A DNA stretch of 64,000 nucleotides from Myxococcota bacterium (GTDB lineage Bacteria > Myxococcota_A > UBA796 > CAJQPC01). The notes below the pieces were generated by a model. It saw only the letters and a list, made by a program, of their open reading frames with translations. It had not been told where the DNA came from and did not search any database. The stretch is from contig JAKLKD010000003.1 in NCBI GenBank assembly GCA_023150845.1, positions 6,847 to 70,846 on the forward strand, in the 5' to 3' direction. A program made the translations under genes and the position numbers. Of the stretch, positions 2-15,399 are shown piece after piece. The number at the start of each line of letters is the position of its first letter. The first letter of the stretch is position 1.

Positions 2-973
2 CCCCGGCTGGCGAAGGCGCTCAAGGACGCCGGGATGAAGGCCGTGGGCGTCTCCGTGGACGGCCCGGAGGAGATCCACGACGTGCTCCGGGACAGCGTC
101 GGGAGCTGGCGCTCGGCGATGCGCGCCTTGGAGGTGTGTAAAGAGGTCGGCCTCGTCACCAGCTCCAACACCCAGGTGAACAACCTCAACGCGCACATGC
201 TCCGCGAGATCGGGGCGATGATCAAGAAGACGGGCGTGCGCGTCTGGCGCGTGCAGCTCACCGTGCCCATGGGTCGGGCGGCGGATCGCCCCGAGTGGAT
301 CCTCGATCCCCCGAAGATCCTCGACGTGATCGACACGCTGGCGGCGATGCAGCTCGAAGAGGTCGCCATGGTGCGGGCCAAGGGCCTGCCGCCGGAGCGC
401 GCCTTCAACATCATGTCGTCGAACAACGTCGGCTACTACGGCCCCCACGAGCAGGTGCTGCGCAGCCGCCCCGGCGGCGACGAGGCCTACTGGCGTGGCT
501 GCCAGGCCGGGGTGTACACCATCGGCATCGAGTCCGACGGCACGGTGAAGGGCTGCCCCAGCCTGCCCACCGCGCCGTACACCGGCGGCAAGGTGCGCGA
601 TCTGGGCCTGGAGCAGATCTGGCGGAACGCTGAGGAGCTCAACTTTGTGCGGGAGCGCACGACGGAGGAGCTCTGGGGCTTCTGTAAGACCTGCTACTAC
701 GCCGACATCTGCCGGGCGGGCTGCTCGTTCACCACGCACTGCACCTTAGGCAAACGCGGCAACAACCCCTTCTGTTACCACCGCGCGGCGACGCTCAAGC
801 GCCAGGGCCGCCGTGAGCGCCTGGTGCTCAAGGAGGCCGCCGCGGGCATCCCCTACGACTTCGGGCGCTTCGAGCTCATCGAGGAGGACTGGGACGCGGC
901 GGGCGCTCAGGAGTCCTCGCCGTCGCAGTTGGAGTCGACGCCGTCGCCGTCCACCTCGGGGGCGCCGGGGTAG
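2..973 (+). CDS. radical SAM / SPASM-domain maturase-like protein (5' end cut off by the window edge)
   Basis: The frame-2 ORF stays open to the window edge, with no stop upstream of the Met at 35. The C-terminal half carries a SPASM-type Cys pattern (GCQAGVYTIGIESDGTVKGC ... CKTCYYADICRAGC ... C) as in PqqE/MftC/anSME-type enzymes. The CxxxCxxC core would lie upstream of the window. The last 67 nt overlap array gene P1 convergently. Confidence 0.8.
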   Translation, partial: PRLAKALKDAGMKAVGVSVDGPEEIHDVLRDSVGSWRSAMRALEVCKEVGLVTSSNTQVNNLNAHMLREIGAMIKKTGVRVWRVQLTVPMGRAADRPEWILDPPKILDVIDTLAAMQLEEVAMVRAKGLPPERAFNIMSSNNVGYYGPHEQVLRSRPGGDEAYWRGCQAGVYTIGIESDGTVKGCPSLPTAPYTGGKVRDLGLEQIWRNAEELNFVRERTTEELWGFCKTCYYADICRAGCSFTTHCTLGKRGNNPFCYHRAATLKRQGRRERLVLKEAAAGIPYDFGRFELIEEDWDAAGAQESSPSQLESTPSPSTSGAPG

Positions 974-1233
974 ACGCTGGCGTTGTCATCGTCGCAGTCG
1001 CCGTCGTCGGCGCTGTAGCCGTCGCCGTCTTCGTCGACGTAGCCGCTCTCGGCGACGCCGTAGTCGGTCTCGGGCGCGATCTTGTCGCAGCCCACGAGGC
1101 TGAGGCCCATGAGCGCGGCGGCGGCGGTGGAGCGCAGGCCACACTCGCGGAGCTTGGCGCCGCAGTGAACGCAGACGCAGGACGAGCCCAAGACGTGCTC
1201 GCCACAAGAGGCGCAGGGGATCAGCGCGGGCAT
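907..1233 (-). CDS. array member P1: zinc-ribbon / lipobox / single MopE-like Asp-Cys motif mini-protein (108 aa)
   Basis: MPALIPCASCGEHVLGSSCVCVHCGAKLRECG (6 Cys), then AAAALMGLSLVGC (lipobox-like), then DEDGDGY..GDCDDDNASVYPGA..DGVDSNCDGEDS-stop. GAGG lies upstream of the ATG. Strong paralogy to 11 neighbours. Confidence 0.8.
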   Translation of the reverse strand: MPALIPCASCGEHVLGSSCVCVHCGAKLRECGLRSTAAAALMGLSLVGCDKIAPETDYGVAESGYVDEDGDGYSADDGDCDDDNASVYPGAPEVDGDGVDSNCDGEDS

Positions 1234-1248
1234 GGTTCGCCTCGGGGG

Positions 1249-1689
1249 CTAGGTGTTGTCGTCGCCGTCGCAGTTGGAGTCCACGCCGTCGCCGGGGGTC
1301 TCCGTCGCGCCGGGGAAGACCGCGCCGTCGGTGTCGTCGCAGTCGCCGCCCTCGGCGCTCACGCCGTCGCCGTCTTGGTCCCCGGTGTCGGCGACGCCGT
1401 AGTCCGGGGTGACGGGGCTCGTGTCCTCCTCCTCGACCTCGCTGTCCGCGGCGGAGTCGGCGGAGTCGGCGGTGTCGGCGGTGTCCGCCGTGTCCGGCAC
1501 GCCGTACTTGGGCTGGGGCGCGATGATGTCACAGCCGGGCATGCTCAGACCCATGAGCGCGGCGGCGGCGGTGGCGGCCAAGGTGTGGCGCAGGCCGCAG
1601 TCGCGGAGCTTGGCGCCGCAGTGGACGCAGGCGCAAGAGGCCTCAAGGACGTGCTGGCCGCAGGACGAGCAGGCGATGAGCTGGGGCAT
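1249..1689 (-). CDS. array member P2 (146 aa), with an inserted acidic DTA/DSA repeat linker
   Basis: MPQLIACSSCGQHVLEASCACVHCGAKLRDCG, AAAALMGLSMPGC, DQDGDGV..GDCDDTDGAVFPGA..DGVDSNCDGDDNT-stop. The stop lies 15 nt from the P1 start. Confidence 0.8.
   Translation of the reverse strand: MPQLIACSSCGQHVLEASCACVHCGAKLRDCGLRHTLAATAAAALMGLSMPGCDIIAPQPKYGVPDTADTADTADSADSAADSEVEEEDTSPVTPDYGVADTGDQDGDGVSAEGGDCDDTDGAVFPGATETPGDGVDSNCDGDDNT
1451..1495 (-). repeat. five imperfect 9-nt tandem units inside P2
   Basis: Plus strand reads gcggagtcg gcggagtcg gcggtgtcg gcggtgtcc gccgtgtcc. On the minus strand this encodes the DTADTADTADSADSA stretch. Confidence 0.8.
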
Positions 1690-1698
1690 GGCGTTGAC

Positions 1699-2052
1699 TC
1701 AGGTGTTGGGGTTGCCGTCGCAGTTGGAGTCGATGCCGTCGTCCGCGGCCTCGGCGGCGCCGGGGTACACGCTCGAGTTGTTGTCGTCACAGTCGCCGTC
1801 GGCCACGGTGTAGCCGTCGCCGTCGAGATCCTCAGAGTACCCCGAGTCCGCGAAGCCGTAGTCGGTCTGGATCGGCGCGTCGGTGTCGCTGCCCTCCTTG
1901 TCGCCGCAGGCCGCCAAGGCGAGGCCCATGAGCGCGGCGGCGGCGGTGGAGCGCAGGCCGCAGTCCTTGAGCTTGGCGCCGCAGTGGGCGCAGGCGCAGG
2001 CCGAGGAGAGGACGTGCTGGCCGCAAGCGGCGCAGGCGATGAGCGGGGGCAT
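1699..2052 (-). CDS. array member P3 (117 aa)
   Basis: MPPLIACAACGQHVLSSACACAHCGAKLKDCG, AAAALMGLALAAC, DLDGDGY..GDCDDNNSSVYPGA..DGIDSNCDGNPNT-stop. The stop lies 9 nt from the P2 start. Confidence 0.8.
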   Translation of the reverse strand: MPPLIACAACGQHVLSSACACAHCGAKLKDCGLRSTAAAALMGLALAACGDKEGSDTDAPIQTDYGFADSGYSEDLDGDGYTVADGDCDDNNSSVYPGAAEAADDGIDSNCDGNPNT

Positions 2053-2069
2053 GAGGCGCTCCGAGGAGG

Positions 2070-2393
2070 TCAGGTGTTGTCGTCGCCGTCGCAGTTGGAG
2101 TCGATGCCGTCGTCTACGGTGTCGATGGCGCCGGGGTTGATGGTAGCGTCGTTGTCGTCGCAGTCGTCGGTCTGGGCGTAGTAGCCGTCGCCGTCCTCGT
2201 CATCGTAGCTCACGACGACGCCATACTCAGGCTCAACCTGCAGCACGCAGCCGCCCAGGCTGAGGCCCATGAGCGCGGCCGCGGCGGTGGCGCGCAGCGT
2301 GCAGTCCTTGAGCTTGGCGCCGCAGTGGGCGCAGGCGCAGGCTGAGGCGAGGACGTGCTGGCCGCAGGCGCCGCAGGCGATGAGCGGGGGCAT
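2070..2393 (-). CDS. array member P4 (107 aa from the internal Met)
   Basis: The tracked ORF is 2070..2432. I start it at MPPLIACGACGQHV (cat at 2391-2393) because that aligns with the P1-P3 N-termini. Ends in DEDGDGYYAQTDDCDDNDATINPGAIDTVDDGIDSNCDGDDNT-stop. Confidence 0.75.
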   Translation of the reverse strand: MPPLIACGACGQHVLASACACAHCGAKLKDCTLRATAAAALMGLSLGGCVLQVEPEYGVVVSYDDEDGDGYYAQTDDCDDNDATINPGAIDTVDDGIDSNCDGDDNT

Positions 2394-2409
2394 GACGCGC
2401 TCCGGGGGC

Positions 2410-2718
2410 TCAGGTGTTGTCGTCGCCGTCACAGTTGGAGTCGATGCCGTCGTCTACGGTGTCGATGGCGCCGGGGTTGACGCTGGCGTCGGAGTCGTCG
2501 CAGTCGTCGGCCTGCGCGGCGTAGCCGTCGCCGTCCTCGTCGGTGTAGGCGATGCCGTAGAGGTCTTGGGCGCAGGCGCTCGCGGAGAGCGCGAGGCCCA
2601 TAAACAAGGCCGTCGGGCCGAGCCCACCCCGGCGCACGGCGCCGCCGCAGAAGGCGCAGCGGGCGTTCGGGTCGACGTTGAGCTGCCCGCAGGCGGCGCA
2701 GGAGTAAAGCGTAGGCAT
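2410..2718 (-). CDS. array member P5 (102 aa), 4-Cys ribbon subtype
   Basis: This is the C-terminal part of the 232-aa tracked ORF 2410..3108. The start is set at MPTLYSCAACGQLNVDPNARCAFCGG (cat at 2716-2718). The upstream 130 aa are Ala/Pro/Thr/Arg-rich out-of-family sequence overlapping P6. Ends in DEDGDGYAAQADDCDDSDASVNPGAIDTVDDGIDSNCDGDDNT-stop. Confidence 0.75.
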   Translation of the reverse strand: MPTLYSCAACGQLNVDPNARCAFCGGAVRRGGLGPTALFMGLALSASACAQDLYGIAYTDEDGDGYAAQADDCDDSDASVNPGAIDTVDDGIDSNCDGDDNT

Positions 2719-2734
2719 CGGCGCTCCAGAGCGA

Positions 2735-3070
2735 TCAGGTGTCGTCGCCGCCGTCGCAGTTGGAGTCGATGGTGTCGCCCGCCGTCTCGGTGGCGCCGGG
2801 GAAAACCGTGGCGTCGTCGTCGTTGCAGTCGCCGTCGCGCACGGCGACGCCGTCACCGTCGTTGTCGACGTAGCCCGTGTCCGGCACGCCGTAGAGCGCG
2901 ACGGGGCCGGAGTCGCTGCCGTCTTTGTCGCCGCAGGCCACGAGCGCGAGGCCCATGAGCGCGGCGGCGGCGGTGAAGCGTGTGGCGTTCGGCGCGGCGC
3001 CGCAGCTCGGGCAGGTGTCGGCGTCGGAGAGCACGTGGGCGCCGCAGCGGGCGCAAGAGAGCAGGGGCAT
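2735..3070 (-). CDS. array member P6 (111 aa), 4-Cys ribbon subtype
   Basis: MPLLSCARCGAHVLSDADTCPSCGAAP, AAAALMGLALVAC, DNDGDGV..GDCNDDDATVFPGATETAGDTIDSNCDGGDDT-stop. Confidence 0.8.
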   Translation of the reverse strand: MPLLSCARCGAHVLSDADTCPSCGAAPNATRFTAAAALMGLALVACGDKDGSDSGPVALYGVPDTGYVDNDGDGVAVRDGDCNDDDATVFPGATETAGDTIDSNCDGGDDT

Positions 3071-3171
3071 GGAGACCTCAGGGCTGGGACTAGGGCGACA
3101 AGGCGCACTATACCGCGATCTGAGGCCGTGCCGCGCCTGAGATCGTGATCCGCCGCAGGCCCAGGCCGGGC

Positions 3172-3507
3172 TCAGGTGTTGTCGTCGCCGTCACAGTTGG
3201 AGTCGAGGCCGTCGTCGGTGGTCTCTAAGGCCCCGGGGTTGACCGCGGCGTTGTTGTCGTCGCAGTCGCCGTCACGCACGGCGTAGCCGTCGCCGTCATC
3301 ATCGACGTAGCCCGTGTCGACCACGCCGTAGAGGTCCGAGACGACGGAGTCGCCGCCGTCTTTGTCGCCGCAGGCCACGAGCGCGAGGCCCATGAGCGCC
3401 GCGGCCGCGGTGAGGCGCGTGGGGCTCGGCGCGGCGCCGCAGCTCGGGCAGTGGGCGTCACCGTCGAAGACGTGGGCGCCGCAGCGGGCGCAGGGGCGGA
3501 GGGACAT
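3172..3507 (-). CDS. array member P7 (111 aa from the internal Met), 4-Cys ribbon subtype
   Basis: The tracked ORF is 3172..3615. The start is set at MSLRPCARCGAHVFDGDAHCPSCGAAP (cat at 3505-3507), by alignment with P6 and P8. Ends in DDDGDGY..GDCDDNNAAVNPGALETTDDGLDSNCDGDDNT-stop. Confidence 0.75.
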   Translation of the reverse strand: MSLRPCARCGAHVFDGDAHCPSCGAAPSPTRLTAAAALMGLALVACGDKDGGDSVVSDLYGVVDTGYVDDDGDGYAVRDGDCDDNNAAVNPGALETTDDGLDSNCDGDDNT

Positions 3508-3616
3508 GGCGGGGGACCTCTTGGAGTGGGGGGCGCTCCTTTTTACCATGAGCCGCGGCCAGGTCGTGGCGGGGGCTATCCCCGTGGAAGAATAGTCCCG
3601 ATGTCGGGCGCTCATC

Positions 3617-4012
3617 GTGCTTGTCGTCGGGCGGATGGGCTCTTACCCCGACCTGTGCTCGTCCGCCGGAGTCCATCTGTATCGGGTGGTCCTCTCCGAA
3701 CAGAGCGCGCTCGCTGGACCACATGTCGCCGGTCTCGCGACACGGTTCGGTCCCTCGCTCCCACGCGGCGTGCTCATCGAGGTGAAGCTCAGCGACGACC
3801 CGGGCCACATCAAGCAGGGCTTCGCCGAGGCCATCGTCTACCGCGACGAGCACCGCGCGCTGTTCACCGACGAGCGGGACTGGCCGAAGACGATCCTGGT
3901 CACCTCACGCCCGCTCCTGAGCGAGCCGCGGCGTGGGGATGACGTCATCGCCGTGGACTGGGCGCGCTGGACGCCGGAGGCCGTGCTCGAGGGCATCGTC
4001 TCCGGCTTGTGA
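3617..4012 (+). CDS. hypothetical protein (about 125-131 aa) on the opposite strand, splitting the array
   Basis: Balanced amino-acid composition and clear GC3 bias in its own frame, unlike the Arg/Pro-rich shadow ORFs nearby. No family recognised. The start is uncertain (GTG at 3617 or ATG at 3635). Confidence 0.55.
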   Translation: MLVVGRMGSYPDLCSSAGVHLYRVVLSEQSALAGPHVAGLATRFGPSLPRGVLIEVKLSDDPGHIKQGFAEAIVYRDEHRALFTDERDWPKTILVTSRPLLSEPRRGDDVIAVDWARWTPEAVLEGIVSGL

Positions 4013-4018
4013 GGGGGC

Positions 4019-4357
4019 TCAGGTGTTGTCTTCGCCGTCGCAGTTGGAGTCGATCCCGTCGTCGGGCGTCTCCGTGGCGCCGGGGTTCACGTTCGGATCG
4101 CCGTCATCGCAGTCGTCGCTCTCGGCGTTGTAGCCGTCGCCGTCCTCGTCGATGAACGCCGAGGAGTCGGGCACCCCGTAGGCGGGCTGGATGTCTTTGT
4201 CGCCGCAGGCCACGAGGCCGAGGCCCATCGCCAGGGCCGCCGCCGTCGCGTGCAGCGCGCCGCCGCCGCAGTCGCGGAGCTTGGCGCCGCAGCTCGGGCA
4301 GGCGCAGGAGGTGTCGAGCACATGAACGCCGCAGCGGGCGCAGGGGTGAAGGGACAT
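4019..4357 (-). CDS. array member P8 (112 aa)
   Basis: MSLHPCARCGVHVLDTSCACPSCGAKLRDCG, AAALAMGLGLVAC, DEDGDGYNAESDDCDDGDPNVNPGATETPDDGIDSNCDGEDNT-stop. Confidence 0.8.
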   Translation of the reverse strand: MSLHPCARCGVHVLDTSCACPSCGAKLRDCGGGALHATAAALAMGLGLVACGDKDIQPAYGVPDSSAFIDEDGDGYNAESDDCDDGDPNVNPGATETPDDGIDSNCDGEDNT

Positions 4358-4371
4358 CGGAGGCTCCGGGG

Positions 4372-4788
4372 TCAGCGGTTGTTCTTGCCGTCGCAGTCGG
4401 AGTCTACCCCATCAAACCACCGCTCACGCGCGCCGGGGAAGACGTCGGGCGCGCTGTCGTCGCAGTCGCCTTGGGAGACGAGCACCCCGTCGCCGTCGCC
4501 GTCGAGCTCGGGCGGAGGCTCGACGACGAGCTCCTCGGGCGGAGTGACCTCAGGTGGCGGCATGAGCACGTCCCCGGGCCCGACGCGGTCCATCGGCGGC
4601 ACCCCGTAGGCGGCCTGGAGCTGGTTTGAGCGGTCGGGCTCGTCCGCGCCGACCAAGGTGAGCCCCATGAGCACCGCCGCAGCGCCTCGGGTGAGTTTGC
4701 CCGTCGTGGAGAGGGCGCCACAGCTTGGGCAGGCGCCGGGGCTGGGGGTCAAGAGCGCGCCGCAGCGACCGCAGGGGTGGAGGTGCAT
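4372..4788 (-). CDS. array member P9 (138 aa), variant without the lipobox Cys, Pro-rich linker
   Basis: MHLHPCGRCGALLTPSPGACPSCGA, AAAVLMGLTLVGAD (no Cys), a Pro/Glu linker, then LDGDGDGV..GDCDDSAPDVFPGARERWFDGVDSDCDGKNNR-stop. Confidence 0.8.
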   Translation of the reverse strand: MHLHPCGRCGALLTPSPGACPSCGALSTTGKLTRGAAAVLMGLTLVGADEPDRSNQLQAAYGVPPMDRVGPGDVLMPPPEVTPPEELVVEPPPELDGDGDGVLVSQGDCDDSAPDVFPGARERWFDGVDSDCDGKNNR

Positions 4789-4803
4789 CGTCGGGGCCTC
4801 GGG

Positions 4804-5247
4804 TCAGCGGTTGTTCTTGCCGTCGCAGTCGGAGTCAACACCGTCAAACCAGCGCTCCTTGGCGCCGGGGAGGACGTTGGGGTCGGCGTCGTCACAGTCT
4901 CCGGCCTGGGCGGGAACACCGTCAGCGTCGGCGTCTTGAGCGACGACCACGGGCGGCGGGAGAGGCGTGGCGACGACGCCGTACAGCGGCTCGTCGATCG
5001 GCGGCGGGGGCGGCGGCGGCGGCTCGGGTGGCGGCGGCTCGGGCTCGGGCGGCTCAGGATCGAACACCACACCATACTCTGGCTCAGGGGCCTGACCGGG
5101 ATCATCGGCGCCGAGCAGCGCGAGGCCCATGACAACGGCGGCGGCGGTGCGGGTGAAGGCGCCGCTGAGCTGCCGCCCGCAGTGGGGGCAGACCAAGGCG
5201 GCGCGCTGGACGTGCTGACCGCAGGCAGGGCAGGGGTGGAGCAGCAT
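4804..5247 (-). CDS. array member P10 (147 aa from the internal Met), variant without the lipobox Cys, Pro-rich linker
   Basis: The tracked ORF is 4804..5394. The start is set at MLLHPCPACGQHVQRAALVCPHCG (cat at 5245-5247). Tail is DADADGV..GDCDDADPNVLPGAKERWFDGVDSDCDGKNNR-stop. Confidence 0.75.
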   Translation of the reverse strand: MLLHPCPACGQHVQRAALVCPHCGRQLSGAFTRTAAAVVMGLALLGADDPGQAPEPEYGVVFDPEPPEPEPPPPEPPPPPPPPIDEPLYGVVATPLPPPVVVAQDADADGVPAQAGDCDDADPNVLPGAKERWFDGVDSDCDGKNNR

Positions 5248-5263
5248 CGGCGGGGCCTCGGGC

Positions 5264-5764
5264 TTAGCGGTCTTGTTTGCTGTCGTCGGCGGGCTCGGCG
5301 TCGTCTGGGGCGGAGGCCTCTGGGGTGGGGCCGTCGGTGACGGCCGGCCCCGGCGCCGGGACGGGCGTGACGACGATGCCGTACAGCGGCTCAACGCGGA
5401 TCGGCTCGGGCTCGGGCGGCGGCTCGGGCGGCGGCGTGGGCTCAGGCGGTGGCTCGGGCTCCGGCGGTGGCTCGGGCGGCGGCGGTGGCTCGGGCGGCGG
5501 CGGCTCAGGAGGGGGCTTGGGCCGCTTGGGCCGCTTCTTCTCGGGCACAGGCGGTGGAGGCTCCGGCGCGGGCTGCTCCACCTTGCCGTAGAGGGGCTCG
5601 GGCCGGGGTTCCTCGCCGTGGTCCGCGCCCATCAAGGTGAGGCCCATGACCACGGCCGCCGCGGTGCGGGTGAGCTTGCCGCCGGGGCTCGCCCCGCAGT
5701 GGGGGCAGGCGAGGGCGGTGAGCTGGACGTGCTGCCCGCAGGCGCCGCAGGCGCGGAGGGTCAT
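5264..5764 (-). CDS. array member P11 (166 aa), degenerate: ribbon and hydrophobic segment kept, C-terminal Asp-Cys motif lost
   Basis: MTLRACGACGQHVQLTALACPHCGA, AAAVVMGLTLMGAD, then a very long PEPPPP linker. It ends in ..AEPADDSKQDR with no DCDD/CDG motif. Confidence 0.7.
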   Translation of the reverse strand: MTLRACGACGQHVQLTALACPHCGASPGGKLTRTAAAVVMGLTLMGADHGEEPRPEPLYGKVEQPAPEPPPPVPEKKRPKRPKPPPEPPPPEPPPPPEPPPEPEPPPEPTPPPEPPPEPEPIRVEPLYGIVVTPVPAPGPAVTDGPTPEASAPDDAEPADDSKQDR

Positions 5765-5778
5765 GGGCGCTCCAAGGA

Positions 5779-6123
5779 TCAGGTGTCGTCGCCGCCGTCG
5801 CAGTTGGAGTCGATGCTGTCCCCGGCGGTCTCGGTGGCGCCCGGGAAGACGTTCGCGTCGTCGTCGTTGCAGTCGCCATCCCCGACGGTCACGCCGTCAC
5901 CATCGGCGTCCGCGAGGTACGAGGTGTCGGCCACGCCGTACTCGGGGGCGAAGCCGCTGTCCGAGGGCTCCTTGTCGCCGCAGCCGACCAGCGCGAGGCC
6001 CATGAGCGCGGCGGTCGCGGTGTGGCGCAGCCCGCAGTCGCGGAGCTTGGTGCCGCAGTGGGGGCAAGAGCAGCTGCTCTCAAACACGTGGGTGCCGCAG
6101 TGGGCGCAGCTCGTCATCGGCAT
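5779..6123 (-). CDS. array member P12 (114 aa from the internal Met); promoter-proximal gene of the upstream sub-array
   Basis: The tracked ORF is 5779..6150. The start is set at MPMTSCAHCGTHVFESSCSCPHCGTKLRDCG (cat at 6121-6123), preceded by GAGGAG. Ends in DADGDGV..GDCNDDDANVFPGATETAGDSIDSNCDGGDDT-stop. Confidence 0.75.
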   Translation of the reverse strand: MPMTSCAHCGTHVFESSCSCPHCGTKLRDCGLRHTATAALMGLALVGCGDKEPSDSGFAPEYGVADTSYLADADGDGVTVGDGDCNDDDANVFPGATETAGDSIDSNCDGGDDT

Positions 6124-6163
6124 GGTCGTCTCCTCAGGCTGGATGGTCACGGTGGACGATGGG

Positions 6164-6169: not shown

Positions 6170-6389
6170 GTCCCAAAATCTTGGGGTCGGCGTGGCGACG
6201 GTCCGAGGTTGTGCTACGCTGTTCCCGATGTCGCCCATGAACGCCAACACCCAGACTACGACTACCCTGCCTCTCGGCGGGCTCGTGGTCGTGTCGGCGC
6301 GTTAGCGACGTCCTCACCACCCAGCGCCTCGCCGACGAACGGCGAGGCCCTCGCGGTGTCGTCGCTCGTCGGTCCAACAGGAGACCGAC

Positions 6390-7595
6390 ATGAACAAGCT
6401 CCCTGAAGATCATCGTGTCATCGCTCGCCGCCTCGACCTGCTGCACTTCCAAGAGGAGGCGCCAGGCATGGTGTTCTGGCATCCCCCTGGCTTCACGCTC
6501 CTCCGGGTGCTGGAGGAGGCCTCCCGCGCCGCCTCCGCCCGGGAGGGCTACGTCGAGGTCCGTACACCTCAGGTGCTTCGCGCGCCGATCTGGGCGCAGA
6601 GCGGCCACTGGGAGCACTTCCAGGACGCCATGTTCCGGGTGGGGGACGCCGACGTCCCCGCCGCGCTCAAGCCCGTGAGCTGCCCAGCGCACATCAGCAT
6701 CGTGAACCGACGATCCTTGTCGTGGCGGGAGCTGCCGCTCCGGATCGCGGAGCTCGGCCTCGTGCACCGTGACGAGCAGCAGGGCGCGCTCTGCGGGCTC
6801 CTCCGCCTGCGCCAGTTCACACAAGACGACGGCCACATCTTCTGTGAGCCACACCAGCTCGTCGAGGAGATACGCCGGTTCTGCGCGTCGATCGGGCCGT
6901 TCTACGCGGCCTTCGGCTTTGACCGGGTCGAGGTCGGGCTCTCGACGAGGCCCCCGGCGCGGCTCGGCGACGACGCGGGCTGGGACTTCGCCGAGGCGGC
7001 CTTGGCCGAGGGCGCGGCGCTGGCGGGGCTCCACCCCATGATTCAGCCCGGTGAAGGCGCGTTTTATGGGCCGAAGCTGGAGTTTGTGCTCATCGACGAC
7101 GCCGGACGGCGCTGGCAGTGCGGGACGATGCAGGTGGACCTCGTGATGCCTGAGCGGTTTGACGTGGAGTACGTCGGCCGCGACGGCGCGCGGCGTCGGC
7201 CGGTGATGCTGCACCGGGCCCGGTATGGCAGCCTGGAGCGCTTCATGGGCCTGCTCTTGGAGCATCACCAGGGTCGCCTGCCAGGCTGGCTGGCGCCGGT
7301 CCAGTGCTGGGTGCTGCCGATCAGCGCGGAGCATGAGCCTTGGGCGGAGCACGTCCGGGCGACGCTCGCCGCCGCTGGGCGACGGGTGGAGCTGCGGCCC
7401 TCGGACCAGTCCTTGGGGCGTCGTGTCGCCGAGGCCCACCAGCAGGGCATCCCCGCGGTGCTCGTCGTCGGCGGGCGCGAGGTCGCCGCGCGCTCGGTCG
7501 CCTGGCGTCAGGCCGCCGGGGGCTCGTCGCCGACGCCGCTGGAGGAGGCCGTGGCGCGCCTGAACGCGCTCTGTCGTTGCCCCCTGGAGCCGTGA
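6390..7595 (+). CDS. thrS: threonyl-tRNA synthetase paralog: catalytic core + anticodon-binding domain only (no TGS/editing region)
   Basis: Collinear from residue 1 with the E. coli ThrRS catalytic domain as I recall it. Matches: [25 protein letters not shown] vs [33 protein letters not shown] vs [18 protein letters not shown] vs [22 protein letters not shown] vs [18 protein letters not shown]. The Cys/His/His zinc-ligand positions are kept. 401 aa equals the length of E. coli ThrRS minus its N-terminal ~240 aa. AGGAGA lies 6 nt upstream of the ATG. Confidence 0.88.
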   Translation: [401 protein letters not shown]

Positions 7596-7637
7596 GCGGC
7601 CAGGGTGCTATGCTGGGGCTCCCCGGAGCCCCAGCCT

Positions 7638-8312
7638 ATGCGCGCCAGCAGCCCCCGTCGTAAAGCCCTCACCGCCCTCGGCGTCTGGTTCGCCGTCAAC
7701 ATCGTGCTCGCCGCGCTCTTCGTGGGCCTGAACCTCGCCTATCGGTCCGGCGTCGACGCGGTCGAGTTTAAGGGTGGGGTCGCCAGCTTCGACCGAGAGT
7801 TTGACGGGGCGCTCTTCGGCATCGACGACGAGCGGGCCTACCGGGTGAGCGCCTCCGGCGACATCGCCGTGGTGAAGATCAAGCCGGGCACGCCGCCGTT
7901 TCGGCCGGTCTGCGGCACGACGAGCCTCGACGGCAGCCTCATCAACCTCGCGATGTACCAGCGGGGCGACTGGGTCTACAGCGGCTACCCCGAGTTCGAC
8001 GGCGTCGACGCCTACAACGTGCGAACGGGGGAGACGCTCTCGGTGAGCGCCCCGACCCCGGCGCCGGGCAAGATGACCGATCCGGCGACCATCGCCGAGT
8101 ACCGCAGCCGAGGGCTCACCTTCGCGGCGGCCAACAAGCTCACGGTGGAGCGCGTCGTGCGTGGCCACCGGCAGCTCGCCTCCATCGAGGAGAGCTGCGT
8201 GGTGTTTAACGCCGCGTTCTTTCTGCTCTTCGGCGCCTCGGCCGTCGCCGGGCTGTGGCTGACGGCGCGGGCGCTTATGGCGAAGAGTGAGCCTACTGCT
8301 CCATCAGCTTGA
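7638..8312 (+). CDS. hypothetical membrane protein (TM helices at the N- and C-terminus)
   Basis: ALTALGVWFAVNIVLAALFVGLNLAY and FNAAFFLLFGASAVAGLWLTA hydrophobic helices. No family recognised. The start is placed at the ATG at 7638 rather than the tracked 7605. Confidence 0.55.
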   Translation: MRASSPRRKALTALGVWFAVNIVLAALFVGLNLAYRSGVDAVEFKGGVASFDREFDGALFGIDDERAYRVSASGDIAVVKIKPGTPPFRPVCGTTSLDGSLINLAMYQRGDWVYSGYPEFDGVDAYNVRTGETLSVSAPTPAPGKMTDPATIAEYRSRGLTFAAANKLTVERVVRGHRQLASIEESCVVFNAAFFLLFGASAVAGLWLTARALMAKSEPTAPSA

Positions 8313-8832
8313 CGACGAGCTGGTAGCCGCTCTCGATCTCCGAGGCGCTCATCTTGCCCTTCTTGACGTACTGAACCGTGGCGGTCTTGTCCAAGATGAC
8401 GACGACGGACTGCTCGTTGCAGTCGCCGAGGCCCCAGGCCGTGGCGAGGATCCGGTCGGGGTCGGTGAGGATGGTGGCGCCGTACTTCTCGATCTTCTTG
8501 CGCACGACGGAGCGGATGACCTCATCGGGGAGCCAGGTCTCCTTGAGGTTCGCGACGCCGACGCCGCGGTACTTCGTCTTGTCGAGGTTCGCGGCCTTGA
8601 GCTTGTCGGCGAAGGCGTCGTTCATGTCGGAGACGTCGGGGTCGGAGTAGAACACCGCGACGACCTTCGAGCCGATGTCGGGGATCTTCGCGGGCTTGTC
8701 GTTCGCGTCACGAAGCTCAGGGTTCGAGACCTTCTGGCCGACGGTGGCGGCGATGGCGTCCAGGCCGCTGACGAGCAGGCCGAAGAAGGAGACGGCGAGG
8801 AGGCCTTGGGCGAGGGCGCGACGGGTGAACAT
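8293..8832 (-). CDS. secreted YtfJ-like / thioredoxin-fold protein
   Basis: Signal-like N-terminus (LLAVSFFGLLVSG). The overall pattern resembles the YtfJ/HI0045 family, from memory only. No redox CxxC. Confidence 0.5.
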   Translation of the reverse strand: MFTRRALAQGLLAVSFFGLLVSGLDAIAATVGQKVSNPELRDANDKPAKIPDIGSKVVAVFYSDPDVSDMNDAFADKLKAANLDKTKYRGVGVANLKETWLPDEVIRSVVRKKIEKYGATILTDPDRILATAWGLGDCNEQSVVVILDKTATVQYVKKGKMSASEIESGYQLVVKLMEQ

Positions 8833-9202: not shown

Positions 9203-10603
9203 ATGACGCTCCCCTCGTGGCTCACCCCTCGTTGGCTCCTGCTGCCTCTCGCCGCGCTCCTCGTCGCGGGCGGGAAGGCCGCCGTTGACGCTCGCGGCTG
9301 GAAGCTCGGCACCCCGGCGCAGAACACCGCGGCGGTCTTCGCGCCGACGGAGGACACGCCCCTCACGCTGCCCGCGCGCTTCAACGCCATGATCACGCGG
9401 CCGACGTACTTCTTCTACTACTCGCCCACCTGCGGCCACTGCCAGAAGGCGATCCCCGAGGTGGTGGAGCTCCACGCCCGCCTCAAGGATCGGCTCGACT
9501 TCGTCGCCGTCGCGTCCTCGATGGCCACGGCCCAGCAGATCGCGGCGTTCAACGAGGTCTATGGCGTGACCTTCCCGACGGTTCACGACCACGACGGGGA
9601 GTTCGCCCGGGCCATCGCCGCGCGCTCGACGCCGACGGCCTTGGTCGCCGCCCCCGGCGCTGAAGACGGCGCCATCGTGCGCCGCCTGGGCTTTTACCCC
9701 TGGTTCCCCGGGGCCTCGGCGCTGTTGATCCTCAAGCTCTGGCCCGAGGAGGGCTTCGCGCTGGCCTTCCCGAAGGACGTCTACCAGGGCGGCACGGCCT
9801 GCGCGATCTGCCACACCGAGGAGGCTCGGGCCTGGTCGGTGAGCCACCACGCCATCGCGTACCGCACGCTCTACGCCCGGGACAAGGCCGAGGATCCCGC
9901 CTGCGTCGGCTGCCACGTCACCGGGATGGGGGAGCCCTCGGGCTTCACCCTGGGAGATCACGGCTCGGCGCTCACGAACGTCACCTGTGAGGCCTGTCAC
10001 GGCGCTGGCGGGCCCCACGACGGCGAGCGCGACGACGCCAGCGCCTCCTGCGTGGGCTGCCACGACGCCGAGCACTCCATCGCCTTCACGTTGCAGAAGG
10101 GCCTGCCCCACATCGACCACTACGCGGCGATGGGCCTCAGCGACCGGGAGCTCGACGAGCGCTGGACGGCGCTGACCTCGGGGGAGGCGCCGAAGCCGCT
10201 CCTCGCCTTCCCCGACGGCGCCTCTCAGGGGGCCAAGGCCTGCCAGAGCTGCCACCCCGACGAGGTGAAGGCCTGGCAGAGCTCAGGGCACGGCGAGGCC
10301 CGGGCGCTGCTCAAGGGCAAGGAGCAGCGGAACCCGGAGTGCCTCAGCTGCCACGCGACGCCGACGAGCTACAGCGCGGGCGTCGCGCCGGAGACCTTCC
10401 TCAGCGAGGGCGTCGGCTGCGAGACCTGCCACGGCCCCGGCGAGAAGCACGTCCAGGCGCCGAGCGCGTCGAACATCCTCGGCCTCGGCGAGAGCTGCCC
10501 GGAGTGTGTCATCGAGTCGGTGTGCACGAGCTGCCACACCCCTCAACAAGACGCGGACTGGGCGCTCCAGTCCCACCTCACGGCGATTCAGGGTCACCGC
10601 TGA
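9203..10603 (+). CDS. secreted thioredoxin-like (CGHC) domain fused to an octaheme c-type cytochrome domain
   Basis: Signal peptide, then YYSPTCGHCQKAIPE (TlpA/ResA-like). Eight CxxCH motifs follow: CAICH, CVGCH, CEACH, CVGCH, CQSCH, CLSCH, CETCH, CTSCH. Confidence 0.85.
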   Translation: MTLPSWLTPRWLLLPLAALLVAGGKAAVDARGWKLGTPAQNTAAVFAPTEDTPLTLPARFNAMITRPTYFFYYSPTCGHCQKAIPEVVELHARLKDRLDFVAVASSMATAQQIAAFNEVYGVTFPTVHDHDGEFARAIAARSTPTALVAAPGAEDGAIVRRLGFYPWFPGASALLILKLWPEEGFALAFPKDVYQGGTACAICHTEEARAWSVSHHAIAYRTLYARDKAEDPACVGCHVTGMGEPSGFTLGDHGSALTNVTCEACHGAGGPHDGERDDASASCVGCHDAEHSIAFTLQKGLPHIDHYAAMGLSDRELDERWTALTSGEAPKPLLAFPDGASQGAKACQSCHPDEVKAWQSSGHGEARALLKGKEQRNPECLSCHATPTSYSAGVAPETFLSEGVGCETCHGPGEKHVQAPSASNILGLGESCPECVIESVCTSCHTPQQDADWALQSHLTAIQGHR

Positions 10604-11618
10604 CGACGGCGGTGGCCGTCGAGGCGCCGCTCTGGGCGCGGATCCACTCGTCCAGGGCGCCCCAGCGGGTGAGCAGCCAACGGTAGCGGGCGGCGGGGTC
10701 CGTGGGGATCTCCGCGGCGGGCACCCGCTCAAACCGCACCTTCACGACCTTATCGACGAGCTCACCCCGGGCGAGGTCGGCCAAGGTGCGCGCGCCCTCC
10801 AGGCCGGTGTGGGCGCAGAAGACGACGTCGAGGGAGGGGTTGGCGTCGAGGATCGCCAGCACGCCGCCGGGCTTCGGGGCCAAGGTCACCTGAAGGGCTC
10901 GGGCGAGGGCCTGGACGTCCTCGGGCTGGTTGGCGAGCTCGGAGAGGCGGGCGGCCTGTCGGGAGGGCGAGAAGCGGGTGCCTTCGGGGTAGAGCACGAG
11001 GGCCTCGTCTACGCCCATGCCGACGGAGAGCGCGCGCACCCGCTCAACCTCCCCGGCGTCCCCGCGGCGCACAAAGACGTTCGGCACCCGCTGGCCGATG
11101 ACGTCGATGCAGGGGTCCCAGAGCAGCTCGGACTTGAGCACATAGCGCAGGTTCATCCCCAGCCCCGCCGAGAGCAGGGCCACGGGGAGGATGGTGTCCG
11201 CGGTGCTCGCGTGGCGCACGAGGAGCAGGGTCGGGCCCGGGCGGCACTCGTCGAGGCCCTGGACGTCCCAGGTGAGGTTGAACAGGGCGCTCAAGGCCCC
11301 GCAGAGGGCGGAGTTCCAGCGGCGCTGCAAGGTGTAGCTGGCCTCAACCAGGGCGGGGCCCGAGGTCACGAGCGCGATCCACCCCGCGCCGAGGAGCCCC
11401 AGGAGCTCGCAGGCGAGGTAAGCCCCGAACATCAAGAGCGCGCGGGTGACGGCGAGCTTGCGGGGCCGCACCAGCTCCGCGAGGAGCGAGACGAGGAGCA
11501 GCGGCAGCGCGGCGGCGGCGAGGGCCCAGGAGGCGAGCACGAGCGCCGAGATGGAGATTCCGCGGCGGCGCCAGCGGTCAGGATCGTCCGCCACTGGGGC
11601 CACGAGGGGCTCGGCCAT
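10578..11618 (-). CDS. lysophospholipid (PlsC-type) acyltransferase family membrane protein
   Basis: HxxxxD block (VRHASTAD) and YPEGTR block; N-terminal TM helices. The start is set at MAEPLV (cat at 11616-11618). Confidence 0.7.
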   Translation of the reverse strand: MAEPLVAPVADDPDRWRRRGISISALVLASWALAAAALPLLLVSLLAELVRPRKLAVTRALLMFGAYLACELLGLLGAGWIALVTSGPALVEASYTLQRRWNSALCGALSALFNLTWDVQGLDECRPGPTLLLVRHASTADTILPVALLSAGLGMNLRYVLKSELLWDPCIDVIGQRVPNVFVRRGDAGEVERVRALSVGMGVDEALVLYPEGTRFSPSRQAARLSELANQPEDVQALARALQVTLAPKPGGVLAILDANPSLDVVFCAHTGLEGARTLADLARGELVDKVVKVRFERVPAAEIPTDPAARYRWLLTRWGALDEWIRAQSGASTATAVVSGDPESP

Positions 11619-11685
11619 ATACGCTCCGAGGTTGAGCACTCAGTGTACAACAGGCGCGCGGCGCGCAGAGAGGATAGCCGTGGGC

Positions 11686-12564
11686 ATGGCCCATGACCCC
11701 GGCGCCCGCGCCAACCTCGTCGGACTGCTCACCAACGTCGGCTTGACCGTGCTCAAGCTCGTCGTGGGGGTCGGCGCGGGCAGCGACGCGCTCTTGGCGG
11801 ACGCCTTCAACAGCGCCGGGGACATCCTCGCCACGGCCATCGGCGCCGTGGGGTACCGCCTCGCCCAGAGCCCCGCTGACGAGGATCATCATTATGGCCA
11901 CGGCAACGCGGAGTCCGTCGCGGGGCTGATCATCGGGGCGATGCTCTTCGGGACCGGCGTGTTCATCGCGCTCGACGGCGGCGTGGCGCTCCTCCGGGCC
12001 GAGGCCAAGGTGCCCGCGGTGTCCGCGGCCTGGGCGGCGCTCGGCACGGTGATCGTGAAGGAGGCGCTCTACCGCTACACCCGCCGGGTAGGGGAGGCGC
12101 TCAACGCCCCGTCGCTCTTGGCCAGCGCCCGGGACCACCGCGGCGACGTCTTGGCGAGCAGCGCCGTGCTCCTCGGTGTGCTCGGCGCGCGCTCGGGCCT
12201 GCCGTGGCTCGACCCCTTGGCGGCGGTGCTCATCGGCGTGACCATCATGGGCCTCGCGGTGAAGCCCCTGCGGGAGAACTTCGGCGTGCTGATGGACGAG
12301 TCGTCCCCGGAGCTCGCCGCGGCCATCGCCGAGGTCGCCCGCAAAGATCCCGACGTGCGCGGCGTCGATAAAGTCGGCGTGCACACCTTGGGCGCCTACC
12401 ACGTCATCGACCTGGAGATCTCCGTGGACGGGGCCCTGCGCCTCACCGACGCCCACACCATCGCCCATCGCGTCGCCGACCGGGTTCGAGACGAGGTGGA
12501 CCACGTCCGGGAGGTCAAGGTGCACGTCAACCCGAGCGAGGCCCCCGCCGCCGAAGGGCGCTGA
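11686..12564 (+). CDS. cation diffusion facilitator (CDF) family metal efflux transporter
   Basis: LADAFNSAGD, DEDHHYGHGNAE and SARDHRGDVLAS motifs, six hydrophobic segments and a C-terminal cytoplasmic domain (HVIDLEI..H.IAHRV). The start is set at MAHDPG; the upstream part of the tracked ORF overlaps the divergent gene. Confidence 0.85.
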   Translation: MAHDPGARANLVGLLTNVGLTVLKLVVGVGAGSDALLADAFNSAGDILATAIGAVGYRLAQSPADEDHHYGHGNAESVAGLIIGAMLFGTGVFIALDGGVALLRAEAKVPAVSAAWAALGTVIVKEALYRYTRRVGEALNAPSLLASARDHRGDVLASSAVLLGVLGARSGLPWLDPLAAVLIGVTIMGLAVKPLRENFGVLMDESSPELAAAIAEVARKDPDVRGVDKVGVHTLGAYHVIDLEISVDGALRLTDAHTIAHRVADRVRDEVDHVREVKVHVNPSEAPAAEGR

Positions 12565-13651: not shown

Positions 13652-14569
13652 TCAGGGGGGAGTCATTGGAGGGTGTTCGTGGACGGCCCAGGGACCGCCG
13701 GGCGGCCAGCGGCTCACCTGGGCGCCGGTCCAGGTCGGGGAGAAGAGCGCACGGAGCGCGCTCACAAGCTGGTCAAGCGGCGGCGCGGGCTCGATGCCAG
13801 CCTTTCGCACGTAGGCGCCCCACTGGGAGGCCTTCGTGGGGTCGTTGGGCATGGCGTCGCTGAGCCCGATGGGCGTCTCGGTTGGGCGGGGGATCCCTCG
13901 GCGGGTGAGGGTGTTCTCGACGGCGCGCAGCAGGTTGCCATCAAGCTCAAACCGCTGACCGAGCAGCCAGAGGTCGTAGTAGTCCTTCATTCGGCTGTTC
14001 TCAAGGCCAAGAGCGAGGATGGTGCTGTACTTCTCGGCCATGCTCGTCTCTTTGGGGTAGACCAAGAGCTCAGGCGCGGGGAGGTCGAGCAGGCTGGGGT
14101 AACGTTCACGGCGCGGGGCGGGGGTGATCGAGTCGCCGAAGCCAACGTCGATGTGCACGCGCACCTGCTCCTTGCCGAAGCGCGCGCTGAGGTCGGCGGA
14201 GAGGCCAGGGTAGGCGCGGTTGCGGGTGGCGACGCCCACTTGTAGGCTCGTGAGGTCAAAGCTCACGCCGTCGTCGTCCACCTCACCGCCGAGCACCTCA
14301 CCCAAGATCCGGGCAAACTCCTCGGGAGAGGGATCGCCGCTCCCCAAGAGGTCGATGTCTTGGGTGGGGCGCTTGACGTCGCGCAGCCAGATCCCGAACA
14401 TCATCGCGCCTTTGAGCACGAACTTGTCGCCGTAAGGGGAGCGGGCGAGGCGGTAGAGCAGGCGCTCGTTGACGTATTGATCGACGAGCAGGTGGTAAGG
14501 CAGCGCTCCGGGGAGCTTACTCCGCATCTTCAGCCGGTCTCGCACACTCGCGGCGATGTTTCGGGTCAC
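13652..14569 (-). CDS. AbiEii/AbiGii-family nucleotidyltransferase toxin (type IV TA)
   Basis: N-terminal pattern IAASVRDRLK..., FVLKGAMMF..RPTQDIDLLG and ..DVGFGD are typical of DUF1814/AbiEii. There is a 4-nt overlap with the upstream AbiEi-like gene. Confidence 0.8.
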   Translation of the reverse strand: MTRNIAASVRDRLKMRSKLPGALPYHLLVDQYVNERLLYRLARSPYGDKFVLKGAMMFGIWLRDVKRPTQDIDLLGSGDPSPEEFARILGEVLGGEVDDDGVSFDLTSLQVGVATRNRAYPGLSADLSARFGKEQVRVHIDVGFGDSITPAPRRERYPSLLDLPAPELLVYPKETSMAEKYSTILALGLENSRMKDYYDLWLLGQRFELDGNLLRAVENTLTRRGIPRPTETPIGLSDAMPNDPTKASQWGAYVRKAGIEPAPPLDQLVSALRALFSPTWTGAQVSRWPPGGPWAVHEHPPMTPP

Positions 14570-15159
14570 AGCAGCGCCTCCACATAGGGTCGCATCTTGT
14601 TGTAGGCCCGCCGCCGCCGGGCGATGGCCATGAGCGGCTGCACCTCGTTAGGGAATCGGCCTAGGTAGTCCTTGAGGGCGTCAAGGGCGGGCTCAAGGCC
14701 CACCTGCCGGGTGAAGTGGAAGGCCTCGACGACCGCGCGGGCGGGGGAGAACACCTTCACCATCACGCCATCGATCTCGTGGTGCTCGACGTCGAGGCCA
14801 AGCTCAGCCTCGTCGAGCCAAGACACCCGCAGCTTCAGGCTCGTGAGCCGCGGCGCCCAGCTCCCCCGGGGGAGCGCGATCCACTCCTGCCAGGGGCGCT
14901 CTAGTCCAAGCCGGTGAAAGTGCAGGGCCGAGAGCAGGGTGACGACGGCCTTGGGCGCCTTCGCCGAGACGACGGCGAGGCTGTTGTGGATGGAGATCTC
15001 GGCGTCAGCGCCTTGGTAGAGGCCACGCTCCACCCGGACGAGGGTGCCGCCGCGGGTGAGGCGGCTCGCCGTCGCTTGGGAGCCGCCGCGGGCGTTGAGC
15101 AGCCCGGCGCGAATGAGCCCGTCTTGGGGGCTGGGCCGCTGGCCCTGCGCACGTTTCAT
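14566..15159 (-). CDS. AbiEi-family antitoxin / transcriptional regulator
   Basis: LTRGGTLVRVERGLYQ winged-helix signature and an AbiEi_4-like C-terminal domain; coupled to the AbiEii gene. The start is set at MKRAQGQ (cat at 15157-15159); the tracked ORF extends to 15213. Confidence 0.7.
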   Translation of the reverse strand: MKRAQGQRPSPQDGLIRAGLLNARGGSQATASRLTRGGTLVRVERGLYQGADAEISIHNSLAVVSAKAPKAVVTLLSALHFHRLGLERPWQEWIALPRGSWAPRLTSLKLRVSWLDEAELGLDVEHHEIDGVMVKVFSPARAVVEAFHFTRQVGLEPALDALKDYLGRFPNEVQPLMAIARRRRAYNKMRPYVEALL

Positions 15160-15189
15160 GGGTGAGATCCTCACATCATTGGAAGAAAG

Positions 15190-15399
15190 GTAGAGGTTTT
15201 CTACCATGTTCATGTTGTGCGAAGCAACCGCGTCCCCCTCGTTCCGTTGCGCAGTCGCCTAACTCGGCGTTCATGTGGCCTGCCAGAAGGCGAGTGAAAA
15301 CCTATCAAAACTAATGTCAGAGCAAAGGTTTTCACTCCATCCAACGCTGATATGATTGAGAAGCGCTCATAATCCATAAAAAATTAGAGGTTTTCACTC
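15190..15399. promoter_or_regulatory. AT-rich region with repeated AGGTTTTCACTC motif (candidate AbiEi operators/promoter)
   Basis: gagtgaaaacct (15292-15303) and aggttttcactc (15326-15337) form a 12-bp inverted repeat with a 22-nt spacer. A third exact copy, aggttttcactc, lies at 15388-15399. A related gtagaggttttctac lies at 15190-15204. Confidence 0.45.

Follow-up and report, generated by a model that had tools for sequence, protein, structure and literature searches.

A short threonyl-tRNA synthetase without editing domain in Myxococcota and its threonine-codon leader

Why do bacteria keep a threonyl-tRNA synthetase (ThrRS) gene that lacks the editing part of the enzyme, and how is such a gene controlled? 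We have addressed this question for a thrS gene found in a stretch of 64,000 nucleotides (nt) from a Myxococcota bacterium (assembly GCA_023150845.1, contig JAKLKD010000003.1, positions 6,847 to 70,846), called here the window. The original prediction for this DNA described a stand-alone ThrRS core next to an array of Zn-ribbon genes and a radical SAM (rSAM) enzyme gene, and considered a dedicated, non-housekeeping role plausible because of these neighbours. Only one half of this idea is retained here: a conditional, non-constitutive role is plausible, but the tie to the Zn-ribbon array and the rSAM gene is given up. Most likely the short thrS is tied to a shortage of charged tRNAThr and not to the array. 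On balance we think it probable that a shortage of Thr-tRNAThr induces an auxiliary ThrRS without editing, by way of an attenuator based on ribosome stalling.

The gene, its product and its clade

The gene in question is the following:

6390-7595, plus strand: short thrS with ATG start, 401 amino acids (aa); ThrRS catalytic core and anticodon-binding domain, without the TGS (N1) and editing (N2) domains

The window has a GC content of about 70%, and raw lists of open reading frames (ORFs) are therefore noisy. The GC content of the short thrS by codon position is 0.77/0.49/0.88 (GC3 0.88), the pattern of a genuine gene at this GC, and its dN/dS is 0.17 when compared with a 92%-identical relative (L002). 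Purifying selection acts on 6390-7595(+), which is a genuine gene. The product matches the Pfam families tRNA-synt_2b (E 4e-38) and HGTP_anticodon (PF03129, E 6e-13, residues 305-392). It scores 411.4 bits with the NCBIfam thrS equivalog TIGR00418, above the cut-off of 383.65, and this match spans only profile positions 170-562 of 565. In a search of the PDB, residues 6-379 aligned gap-free and with about 50% identity to residues 242-615 of E. coli ThrRS (1qf6), and the N-terminal boundary coincides with that of the crystallised delta-N core 1evk. With an offset of +236 to the E. coli numbering, the zinc triad C98/H149/H275 (E. coli C334/H385/H511) is kept, as are the class II residues R127 of motif 2 (R363) and R284 of motif 3 (R520) and the threonine/adenylate-binding residues Q145, D147, Y226, K229 and Q248 (E. 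coli Q381, D383, Y462, K465 and Q484). All of these residues are 100% invariant among 137 short-clade sequences. From this intact active site the product is predicted to be a catalytically competent ThrRS.

Upstream of the gene an in-frame TAG (6303-6305) lies 84 nt 5' of the thrS ATG, and the stretch between them contains no start codon. This rules out an N-terminal extension, and TGS and editing domains cannot be encoded. The original prediction had named a stand-alone core without these domains, retained zinc ligands and class II motifs, and a lack of room for an N-terminal region; the alignments that begin at residue 6 (E. coli 242), the invariant residues and the upstream stop bear it out on all these points. 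A probe with the N-terminal region of E. coli ThrRS gave no match in the window. Likewise, no gene for a TGS or editing domain is present within +/-10 kb of any short thrS locus, and hence the missing part is not an adjacent split gene.

Truncated E. coli ThrRS aminoacylates tRNAThr but cannot clear Ser-tRNAThr. The short ThrRS shares with this E. coli delta-N protein (residues 242-642; 1evk/1evl) the boundaries and a length of about 401 aa, besides the sequence identity and the identical zinc triad and motif residues. In contrast to the engineered enzyme, the short thrS is natural and clade-wide, carries M332V, N333S, V376L and L493F and has a regulatory leader of its own.

The truncation is no local accident, but the mark of an old and conserved clade of ThrRS of about 400 aa that comes mostly from Myxococcota. 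Among 5.8 billion proteins, the best 120 homologues are all 392-477 aa long; those with a name belong to Stigmatella, Sorangium, Melittangium, Polyangiales and Nannocystaceae. Genomes with the short gene include Melittangium boletus CP022163.1, Sorangium CP150455.1 and CP150344.1, and Stigmatella aurantiaca GCA_900109545.1. In genome and metagenome scans all loci with more than 52% identity to the short ThrRS are short, and the remaining 126 loci, mostly proteobacterial, encode 630-690-aa enzymes with 42-50% identity. The placement on a ThrRS tree, which had been proposed as a check, puts the window copy into this clade: over the shared region, the short enzymes were monophyletic in 38 of 40 neighbour-joining (NJ) bootstraps, and no full-length sequence ever fell inside. 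Their sister group consists of five representatives of about 404-416 aa, encoded within contigs of up to 1.2 Mb, and the next branch outside both groups is a full-length planctomycetal enzyme. Seven positions split short from full-length ThrRS, namely M332V, N333S, V376L, L493F, I526L, I578L and K581R.

The threonine-codon leader and its RNA

The short thrS is transcribed divergently from the array, as had been stated, since the last array gene (5779-6150) lies on the minus strand. The spacer between the two had been described as 240 nt of non-coding DNA. The gap itself is there (239 nt), but it is not simply non-coding: a conserved leader ORF of 25 codons and structured RNA lie within it. The elements of this region are:

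6211-6219, plus strand: possible extended -10 element TGCTACGCT, 8 nt 5' of the leader ATG
6228-6305, plus strand: leader ORF of 25 codons, MSPMNANTQTTTTLPLGGLVVVSAR (stop), whose TAG also closes the frame upstream of thrS
6249-6266, plus strand: run of threonine codons ACC CAG ACT ACG ACT ACC (5 of 6 codons encode Thr), where the ribosome is proposed to stall
6227-6312, plus strand: hairpin A, the self-fold of the leader ORF, in which the Thr-run arm 6254-6261 pairs with 6283-6290
6318-6358, plus strand: hairpin B, GC-rich and terminator-like, with the core GCCTCGCCG-acgaa-CGGCGAGGC at 6326-6348
6331-6373, plus strand: alternative hairpin of -29 kcal/mol, mutually exclusive with hairpins B and C
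6368-6389, plus strand: hairpin C, in which GTCGGTC pairs with GACCGAC; it encloses the Shine-Dalgarno (SD) sequence AGGAGA (6379-6384) and abuts the ATG

The leader ORF reads ATG TCG CCC ATG AAC GCC AAC ACC CAG ACT ACG ACT ACC and so on to the TAG. All 18 lineages examined have a mini-ORF with a Thr run upstream of the short thrS; it contains 4-8 Thr codons and lies 85-180 nt 5' of the gene. With a criterion of at least 5 Thr in 8 codons, a Thr run precedes full-length thrS at only 3 of 126 loci (1 of 39 among those of high GC). The leader peptides of other lineages are 44-60% identical to that of the window:

Stigmatella: MKFSQHTTRTTTPRTGG...
Sorangium: VSAKFTATTTTTTRTGG...
Myxococcus: ...FSTTTRTTTRYGG...
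Melittangium: VSHVRITTTTTTTATFPGG...
Kofleriaceae: ...ARITTTTTTTACG...
Nannocystaceae: ...LTTTTREGG...
Pelagibius: MSTFAGITVTTTMTTRCGG...
Sister lineage with 50% GC: ...SDSTTTTAL (stop)

Thr leaders are also present in Polyangiaceae and in several metagenome lineages. Across lineages the third codon positions of the Thr run vary (ACC/ACG/ACT/ACA) while AC is constant, which indicates a coding constraint for threonine and not a repeat at the nucleotide level. The window and the 92% relative agree in all 162 nt that run from the start codon of the leader to that of thrS (100% identity), although the synonymous rate (pS 0.246) predicts about 40 differences there. The DNA just upstream of the leader has diverged between the two. 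The candidate extended -10 element is common to both (TGTGCTAC[G/C]CT), and the DNA farther upstream differs.

Since a Thr-codon leader accompanies the gene everywhere, the data argue for control by tRNAThr charging and for a role of the enzyme in translation. Leader-peptide attenuators upstream of aminoacyl-tRNA synthetase (aaRS) genes are known (PMC8079986). The N-terminal deletion abolishes the operator autoregulation of ThrRS of the E. coli type (PMC7373986); this autoregulation needs the missing domain, and the short ThrRS therefore needs another control device. When the leader was compared with Rfam at permissive thresholds, neither a T-box nor Thr_leader nor any other known family matched.

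A Thr-run leader was also seen at one full-length gene outside the clade. In Kerstersia similis (L023, 1364-1500) a canonical thrS is preceded by the leader MAFSTTRTTTYSPRAAVCTPGESWSR (stop) (MAFSTTRTTTY...) and a textbook terminator, GCGGCCcacaGGCCGCGTTTTTT. Attenuation by a Thr leader therefore also acts on at least one betaproteobacterial housekeeping thrS.

The leader RNA is strongly structured. The minimum free energy of 6215-6400 is -89.3 kcal/mol (z = -5.1 versus shuffles), z-scores for the window and its relatives range from -4.3 to -5.2, and the leaders of Stigmatella and Sorangium have the architecture seen in the window. In the apical stem of hairpin A, CCTGCC (6266-6271) pairs with GGCGGG (6276-6281), a pairing that recurs across leaders as CCNGC with GGCGGG. 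Orthologous hairpins B are followed by a clear U-tract in L172 (Pelagibius), L093, L016 and L170; two of these terminators read:

Pelagibius (L172): GGCCCCGCCGaacCGGACGGGGCTTTTGTTTTTT
L093: ...GGTGGCGTTTTTTTG

The arms of hairpin B vary by lineage and yet remain complementary. A consensus from MAFFT and RNAalifold was uninformative because the arms were misaligned, and it was replaced by an arm-swap test. Here cognate arms paired with a mean of -19.9 kcal/mol versus -14.4 kcal/mol for non-cognate arms, and 0 of 10,000 permutations reached the cognate value. Hairpin B is thus conserved by covariation. In hairpin C, many relatives have a conserved anti-SD sequence, GCUCCGUCC, that pairs with the SD sequence, and the probability of an unpaired SD is about 0. 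In the window lineage the alternative hairpin at 6331-6373 may be part of the switch. Just 3' of the Thr run, each lineage has a strand that is similar to the 3' arm of hairpin B. With the remainder of segment 2 this strand can pair with segment 3, the region that includes the B 5' arm; the energy of the duplex is -30 to -50 kcal/mol, better than that of shuffles at 11 of 12 loci.

These elements suggest the following mechanism. When Thr-tRNAThr is ample, the ribosome would complete the 25-codon leader ORF; hairpins A, B (terminator-like) and C (SD-proximal) would then form in the RNA, with little expression of thrS. When Thr-tRNAThr is scarce, the ribosome would stall on the Thr run and free the strand just downstream, CGGCGGGC..., which encodes a conserved 'GG'. 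The freed strand would capture the 5' arm of hairpin B and thereby permit transcription or translation into thrS. The short ThrRS would then recharge tRNAThr without proofreading, alongside a canonical, editing-proficient enzyme. The existence of an attenuator is well supported, and we infer its exact switch in the window. Read-through that depends on stalling, its read-out by termination or by SD masking, the presence of a canonical thrS beside the short one in the genome, and the physiological trigger are likewise points that we infer.

The response to the ribosome was simulated by masking its footprint codon by codon along the leader, with equilibrium folding. With the A-site on Thr codons, and only then, hairpin B melts in 7 of the 18 lineages (Stigmatella, both Sorangium, one Polyangiaceae, L168, L170 and Pelagibius). 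Several results weigh against the attenuator model. In these equilibrium simulations hairpin B of the window stays folded at every ribosome position, as it does in the other lineages that do not melt, and the window hairpin has no U-tract. The equilibrium accessibility of the SD sequence is constant across ribosome positions in all lineages; being indifferent to the ribosome, SD masking was dropped as the regulated step. A test of nascent-RNA capture, in which a ribosome stalled on the Thr run was compared with one at the stop codon, gave a modest contrast, the probability that the B 5' arm of the window is already captured going from 0.45 to 0.88 as a trend only. A consensus sigma-70 scan found no promoter. 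Moreover, a canonical thrS was not demonstrated in any genome with a short thrS, in a scan that was dominated by proteobacterial thrS. Look-ups of full-length ThrRS by name gave no myxobacterial enzyme either, the high-GC representatives being organellar, archaeal or planctomycetal. The auxiliary status of the short gene is suggested by its occurrence in an alphaproteobacterium and by general considerations.

The short enzyme might instead carry out all charging of tRNAThr, as the only housekeeping ThrRS in a split system. A separate AlaX-, ProXp-ST- or ThrRS-ed-like factor would edit Ser-tRNAThr, and the leader would serve as feedback control as for pheST, which in E. coli is under leader-peptide control. 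The undemonstrated canonical gene and the age and strong conservation of the short clade would fit such a system, and Crenarchaea do use one (PMC7373986). We regard it as distinctly unlikely here. No TGS or editing-domain gene lies in the 10-kb flanks mentioned above, and the Pelagibius copy is nested among myxobacterial sequences, which is typical of an accessory, transferable gene. Furthermore, the short ThrRS has a catalytic domain of bacterial type and scores 170 bits with the archaeal-type model NF003068, below the cut-off of 484. Model myxobacteria, moreover, presumably have an annotated canonical thrS. Crenarchaeal ThrRS-cat/ThrRS-ed (3a31) and yeast mitochondrial MST1 (3ugq) are, like the short ThrRS, natural enzymes without a cis editing domain. 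In contrast to it they are archaeal-type and mitochondrial proteins, with 155 and 241 bits to the short ThrRS compared with 349-378 for bacterial ThrRS. They are also the sole ThrRS of their compartment. No editing subunit is adjacent to the short thrS.

Gene neighbourhood and competing explanations

The favoured reading, an auxiliary ThrRS induced by poor charging of tRNAThr, differs from the role that the neighbouring genes had suggested. A SPASM/rSAM gene at 35-973(+), cut by the window edge, adjoins 12-13 tandem small paralogues on the minus strand (window 35-6150). The paralogues are three-part proteins that combine a Zn-ribbon at the N-terminus and an acidic, MopE-type metal-binding motif (PF11617) at the C-terminus with a hydrophobic segment resembling a lipobox (AAALMGLxLVxC). 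Together with the rSAM gene this looks like an array of precursors or paralogues with a maturase.

Co-occurrence of the short thrS and the array across genomes, which had been put forward as a check, was seen only in the 92%-identical relative L002. The neighbours are unrelated and mutually different in Stigmatella, two Sorangium strains, Melittangium, a Nannocystaceae metagenome-assembled genome (MAG), the 'Alphaproteobacteria' MAG, Pelagibius and the 50%-GC sister lineage. Since synteny is lost beyond the 92% relative, a functional link of the short thrS to the array is unsupported. The array proteins contain 2-11% Thr and are not Thr-rich, and the link to the Zn-ribbon array and the rSAM gene was rejected on both grounds.

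The idea that the short ThrRS acts as an amino-acid ligase or as a supplier of Thr-tRNA for a pathway of the array and the rSAM enzyme, resembling those for ribosomally synthesised and post-translationally modified peptides (RiPPs), builds on the dedicated role of the original prediction. It derives from the SPASM/rSAM gene and the 12-13 small paralogous genes that adjoin in the window and in the 92% relative. We now give this idea hardly any credence. The synteny is gone in all more distant lineages, the short thrS is transcribed in the opposite direction to an array whose proteins are not Thr-rich, and the enzyme retains the anticodon-binding domain, which carrier-protein ligases do not have. 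No gene for a carrier protein is adjacent to the short thrS, and PKS/NRPS (polyketide synthase/non-ribosomal peptide synthetase) genes were absent from the short-thrS loci examined. A ligase role in a natural-product pathway is thus not upheld. The association with a Thr leader does not speak for a pathway-dedicated ligase or a zinc-linked function.

A zinc-limitation isoform, like Anabaena T2 or the Zur-regulated paralogues of proteobacteria, is also very unlikely. Zur-regulated ThrRS paralogues that retain the zinc ligands are known (PMC4787780, PMC2770081), and in the window the array genes with metal motifs and a CDF transporter lie near the short thrS. These metal-related neighbours are confined to the window lineage, however, and COG0523 or znuABC genes are not adjacent. 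What is conserved upstream is a leader with Thr codons and not an operator, and the zinc triad is invariant.

A special case of the favoured reading is a backup enzyme that is insensitive to inhibitors. Natural ThrRS inhibitors from competitors in the soil, such as borrelidin or obafluorin, would inactivate the housekeeping enzyme and so lower Thr-tRNAThr, and the leader would induce a resistant short ThrRS. The logic of the leader suits any cause of low charging, and the carriers are soil predators or competitors. M332V, N333S and L493F lie by the zinc-binding Cys or near the fourth subsite of borrelidin and are present in 94-100% of the short clade, compared with 96-100% of full-length enzymes that have the other residue; L493 we take to have a role at the borrelidin site. 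Borrelidin resistance mutations map to the fourth subsite (PMC4389257). On the other hand, the known resistance positions are as in canonical enzymes, H309 being invariant and L489 being M or L in both groups, so that a borrelidin-resistance signature was set aside as not decisive. No biosynthetic cluster is adjacent at the loci examined; with the variable neighbourhoods and the absence of PKS/NRPS genes, a placement in a biosynthetic cluster as for self-resistance genes of the BorO/ObaO type was not found. We judge such an inhibitor-insensitive backup to be unlikely. A broader form of this idea is possible but on balance doubtful: a housekeeping ThrRS crippled by an inhibitor, by oxidation or by metal loss would cause the stall and thus trigger its own countermeasure, a transferable, editing-free and possibly inhibitor-insensitive ThrRS, with mistranslation of Ser for Thr traded for survival.

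With respect to mobility, the short thrS with a Thr leader occurs in alphaproteobacterial assemblies, namely in Pelagibius sp. GCA_028289705.1 (L172, 7802-7943) and in L168, the MAG labelled 'Alphaproteobacteria' at NCBI. The Pelagibius gene is the one that nests among myxobacterial sequences in the tree, and it is followed by a gene for a 514-aa pentapeptide-repeat protein. The alphaproteobacterial carriers suggest lateral transfer of the whole module, or mis-binning. Plasmids in PLSDB carry no short-clade thrS, only canonical-type thrS of less than 50% identity. In this database 715 plasmid records, of which Klebsiella accounts for 567, have a thrS-like sequence that is less than 50% identical to the short ThrRS. 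ThrRS copies on plasmids are thus common, although none belongs to the short clade.

Further genes of the region were noted. The gene at 7605-8312, 10 nt 3' of the short thrS, encodes a lineage-specific protein with two transmembrane segments and no family match; it was considered as a trans-editing factor and discarded, as it is not kept beside the short thrS elsewhere. The remaining observations are:

8293-8832, minus strand: YtfJ-family gene
9203-10603, plus strand: thioredoxin-fold domain fused to a multihaem cytochrome c, 159 bits versus NF041198 'UshA-like (seleno)protein', below the cut-off of 275
11446-12564, plus strand: CDF cation-efflux gene, like the YtfJ-family gene near 9203-10603
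14566-15213, minus strand: weakly AbiEi-antitoxin-like helix-turn-helix protein, adjoining the next gene
15450-17111, minus strand: UbiB/ABC1-family kinase

In the 92% relative a pair of AAA_15/AAA_21 ATPase genes is inserted between the acyltransferase/CDF region and the AbiEi-antitoxin-like gene.

Known systems and implications

A second thrS under a cis-acting sensor of tRNAThr charging is not without precedent. Bacillus subtilis thrZ encodes a second full-length ThrRS that is silent until falling charging of tRNAThr induces it by way of a T-box riboswitch, which reads uncharged tRNA. The logic that we propose for the short thrS is the same, and the means are different: thrZ is full-length and has a T-box, whereas the short thrS has a translated Thr-codon leader and no editing domain. 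Anabaena T2 is an auxiliary ThrRS with impaired editing that is expressed under stress only, while the housekeeping enzyme edits in trans (PMC4787780). The short ThrRS would likewise be auxiliary and editing-impaired. T2 differs in that it retains a degenerate N2 domain and is regulated by Zur as part of a zinc operon, whereas the short clade lacks the N-terminal region altogether and has a Thr leader.

With respect to the leader, E. coli thrL and pheM-pheST as well as the leaders of Streptomyces leuS, trpS, alaS and thrS (PMC8079986) have the same design, a short ORF with cognate codons followed by hairpins upstream of a biosynthesis or aaRS gene. The thrS leader of S. lividans has two Thr codons only, in contrast to the 4-8 of the short-thrS leader, whose conservation extends across phyla and which goes with the short ThrRS. 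The Rfam model Thr_leader gave no match to the short-thrS leader.

Reviews of ThrRS describe shortened, editing-less enzymes only from some archaea and mitochondria (PMC7373986). In a literature search we found no paper that describes a bacterial clade of editing-less ThrRS or its pairing with a Thr leader. Editing-less ThrRS and leader-peptide attenuators are each known; here they are joined in a conserved, apparently mobile module. The leader itself would represent a well-conserved leader-peptide attenuator outside Rfam, open to modelling and to a genome-wide search. If the favoured reading is true, many soil bacteria keep a ThrRS without proofreading whose expression is governed by a leader that senses threonine. 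This would provide a natural system for gauging how much mistranslation of Ser for Thr is tolerated under stress, and for learning how auxiliary synthetases back up a housekeeping enzyme. One could also ask with it whether the sensitivity of these bacteria to antibiotics that target ThrRS is affected.

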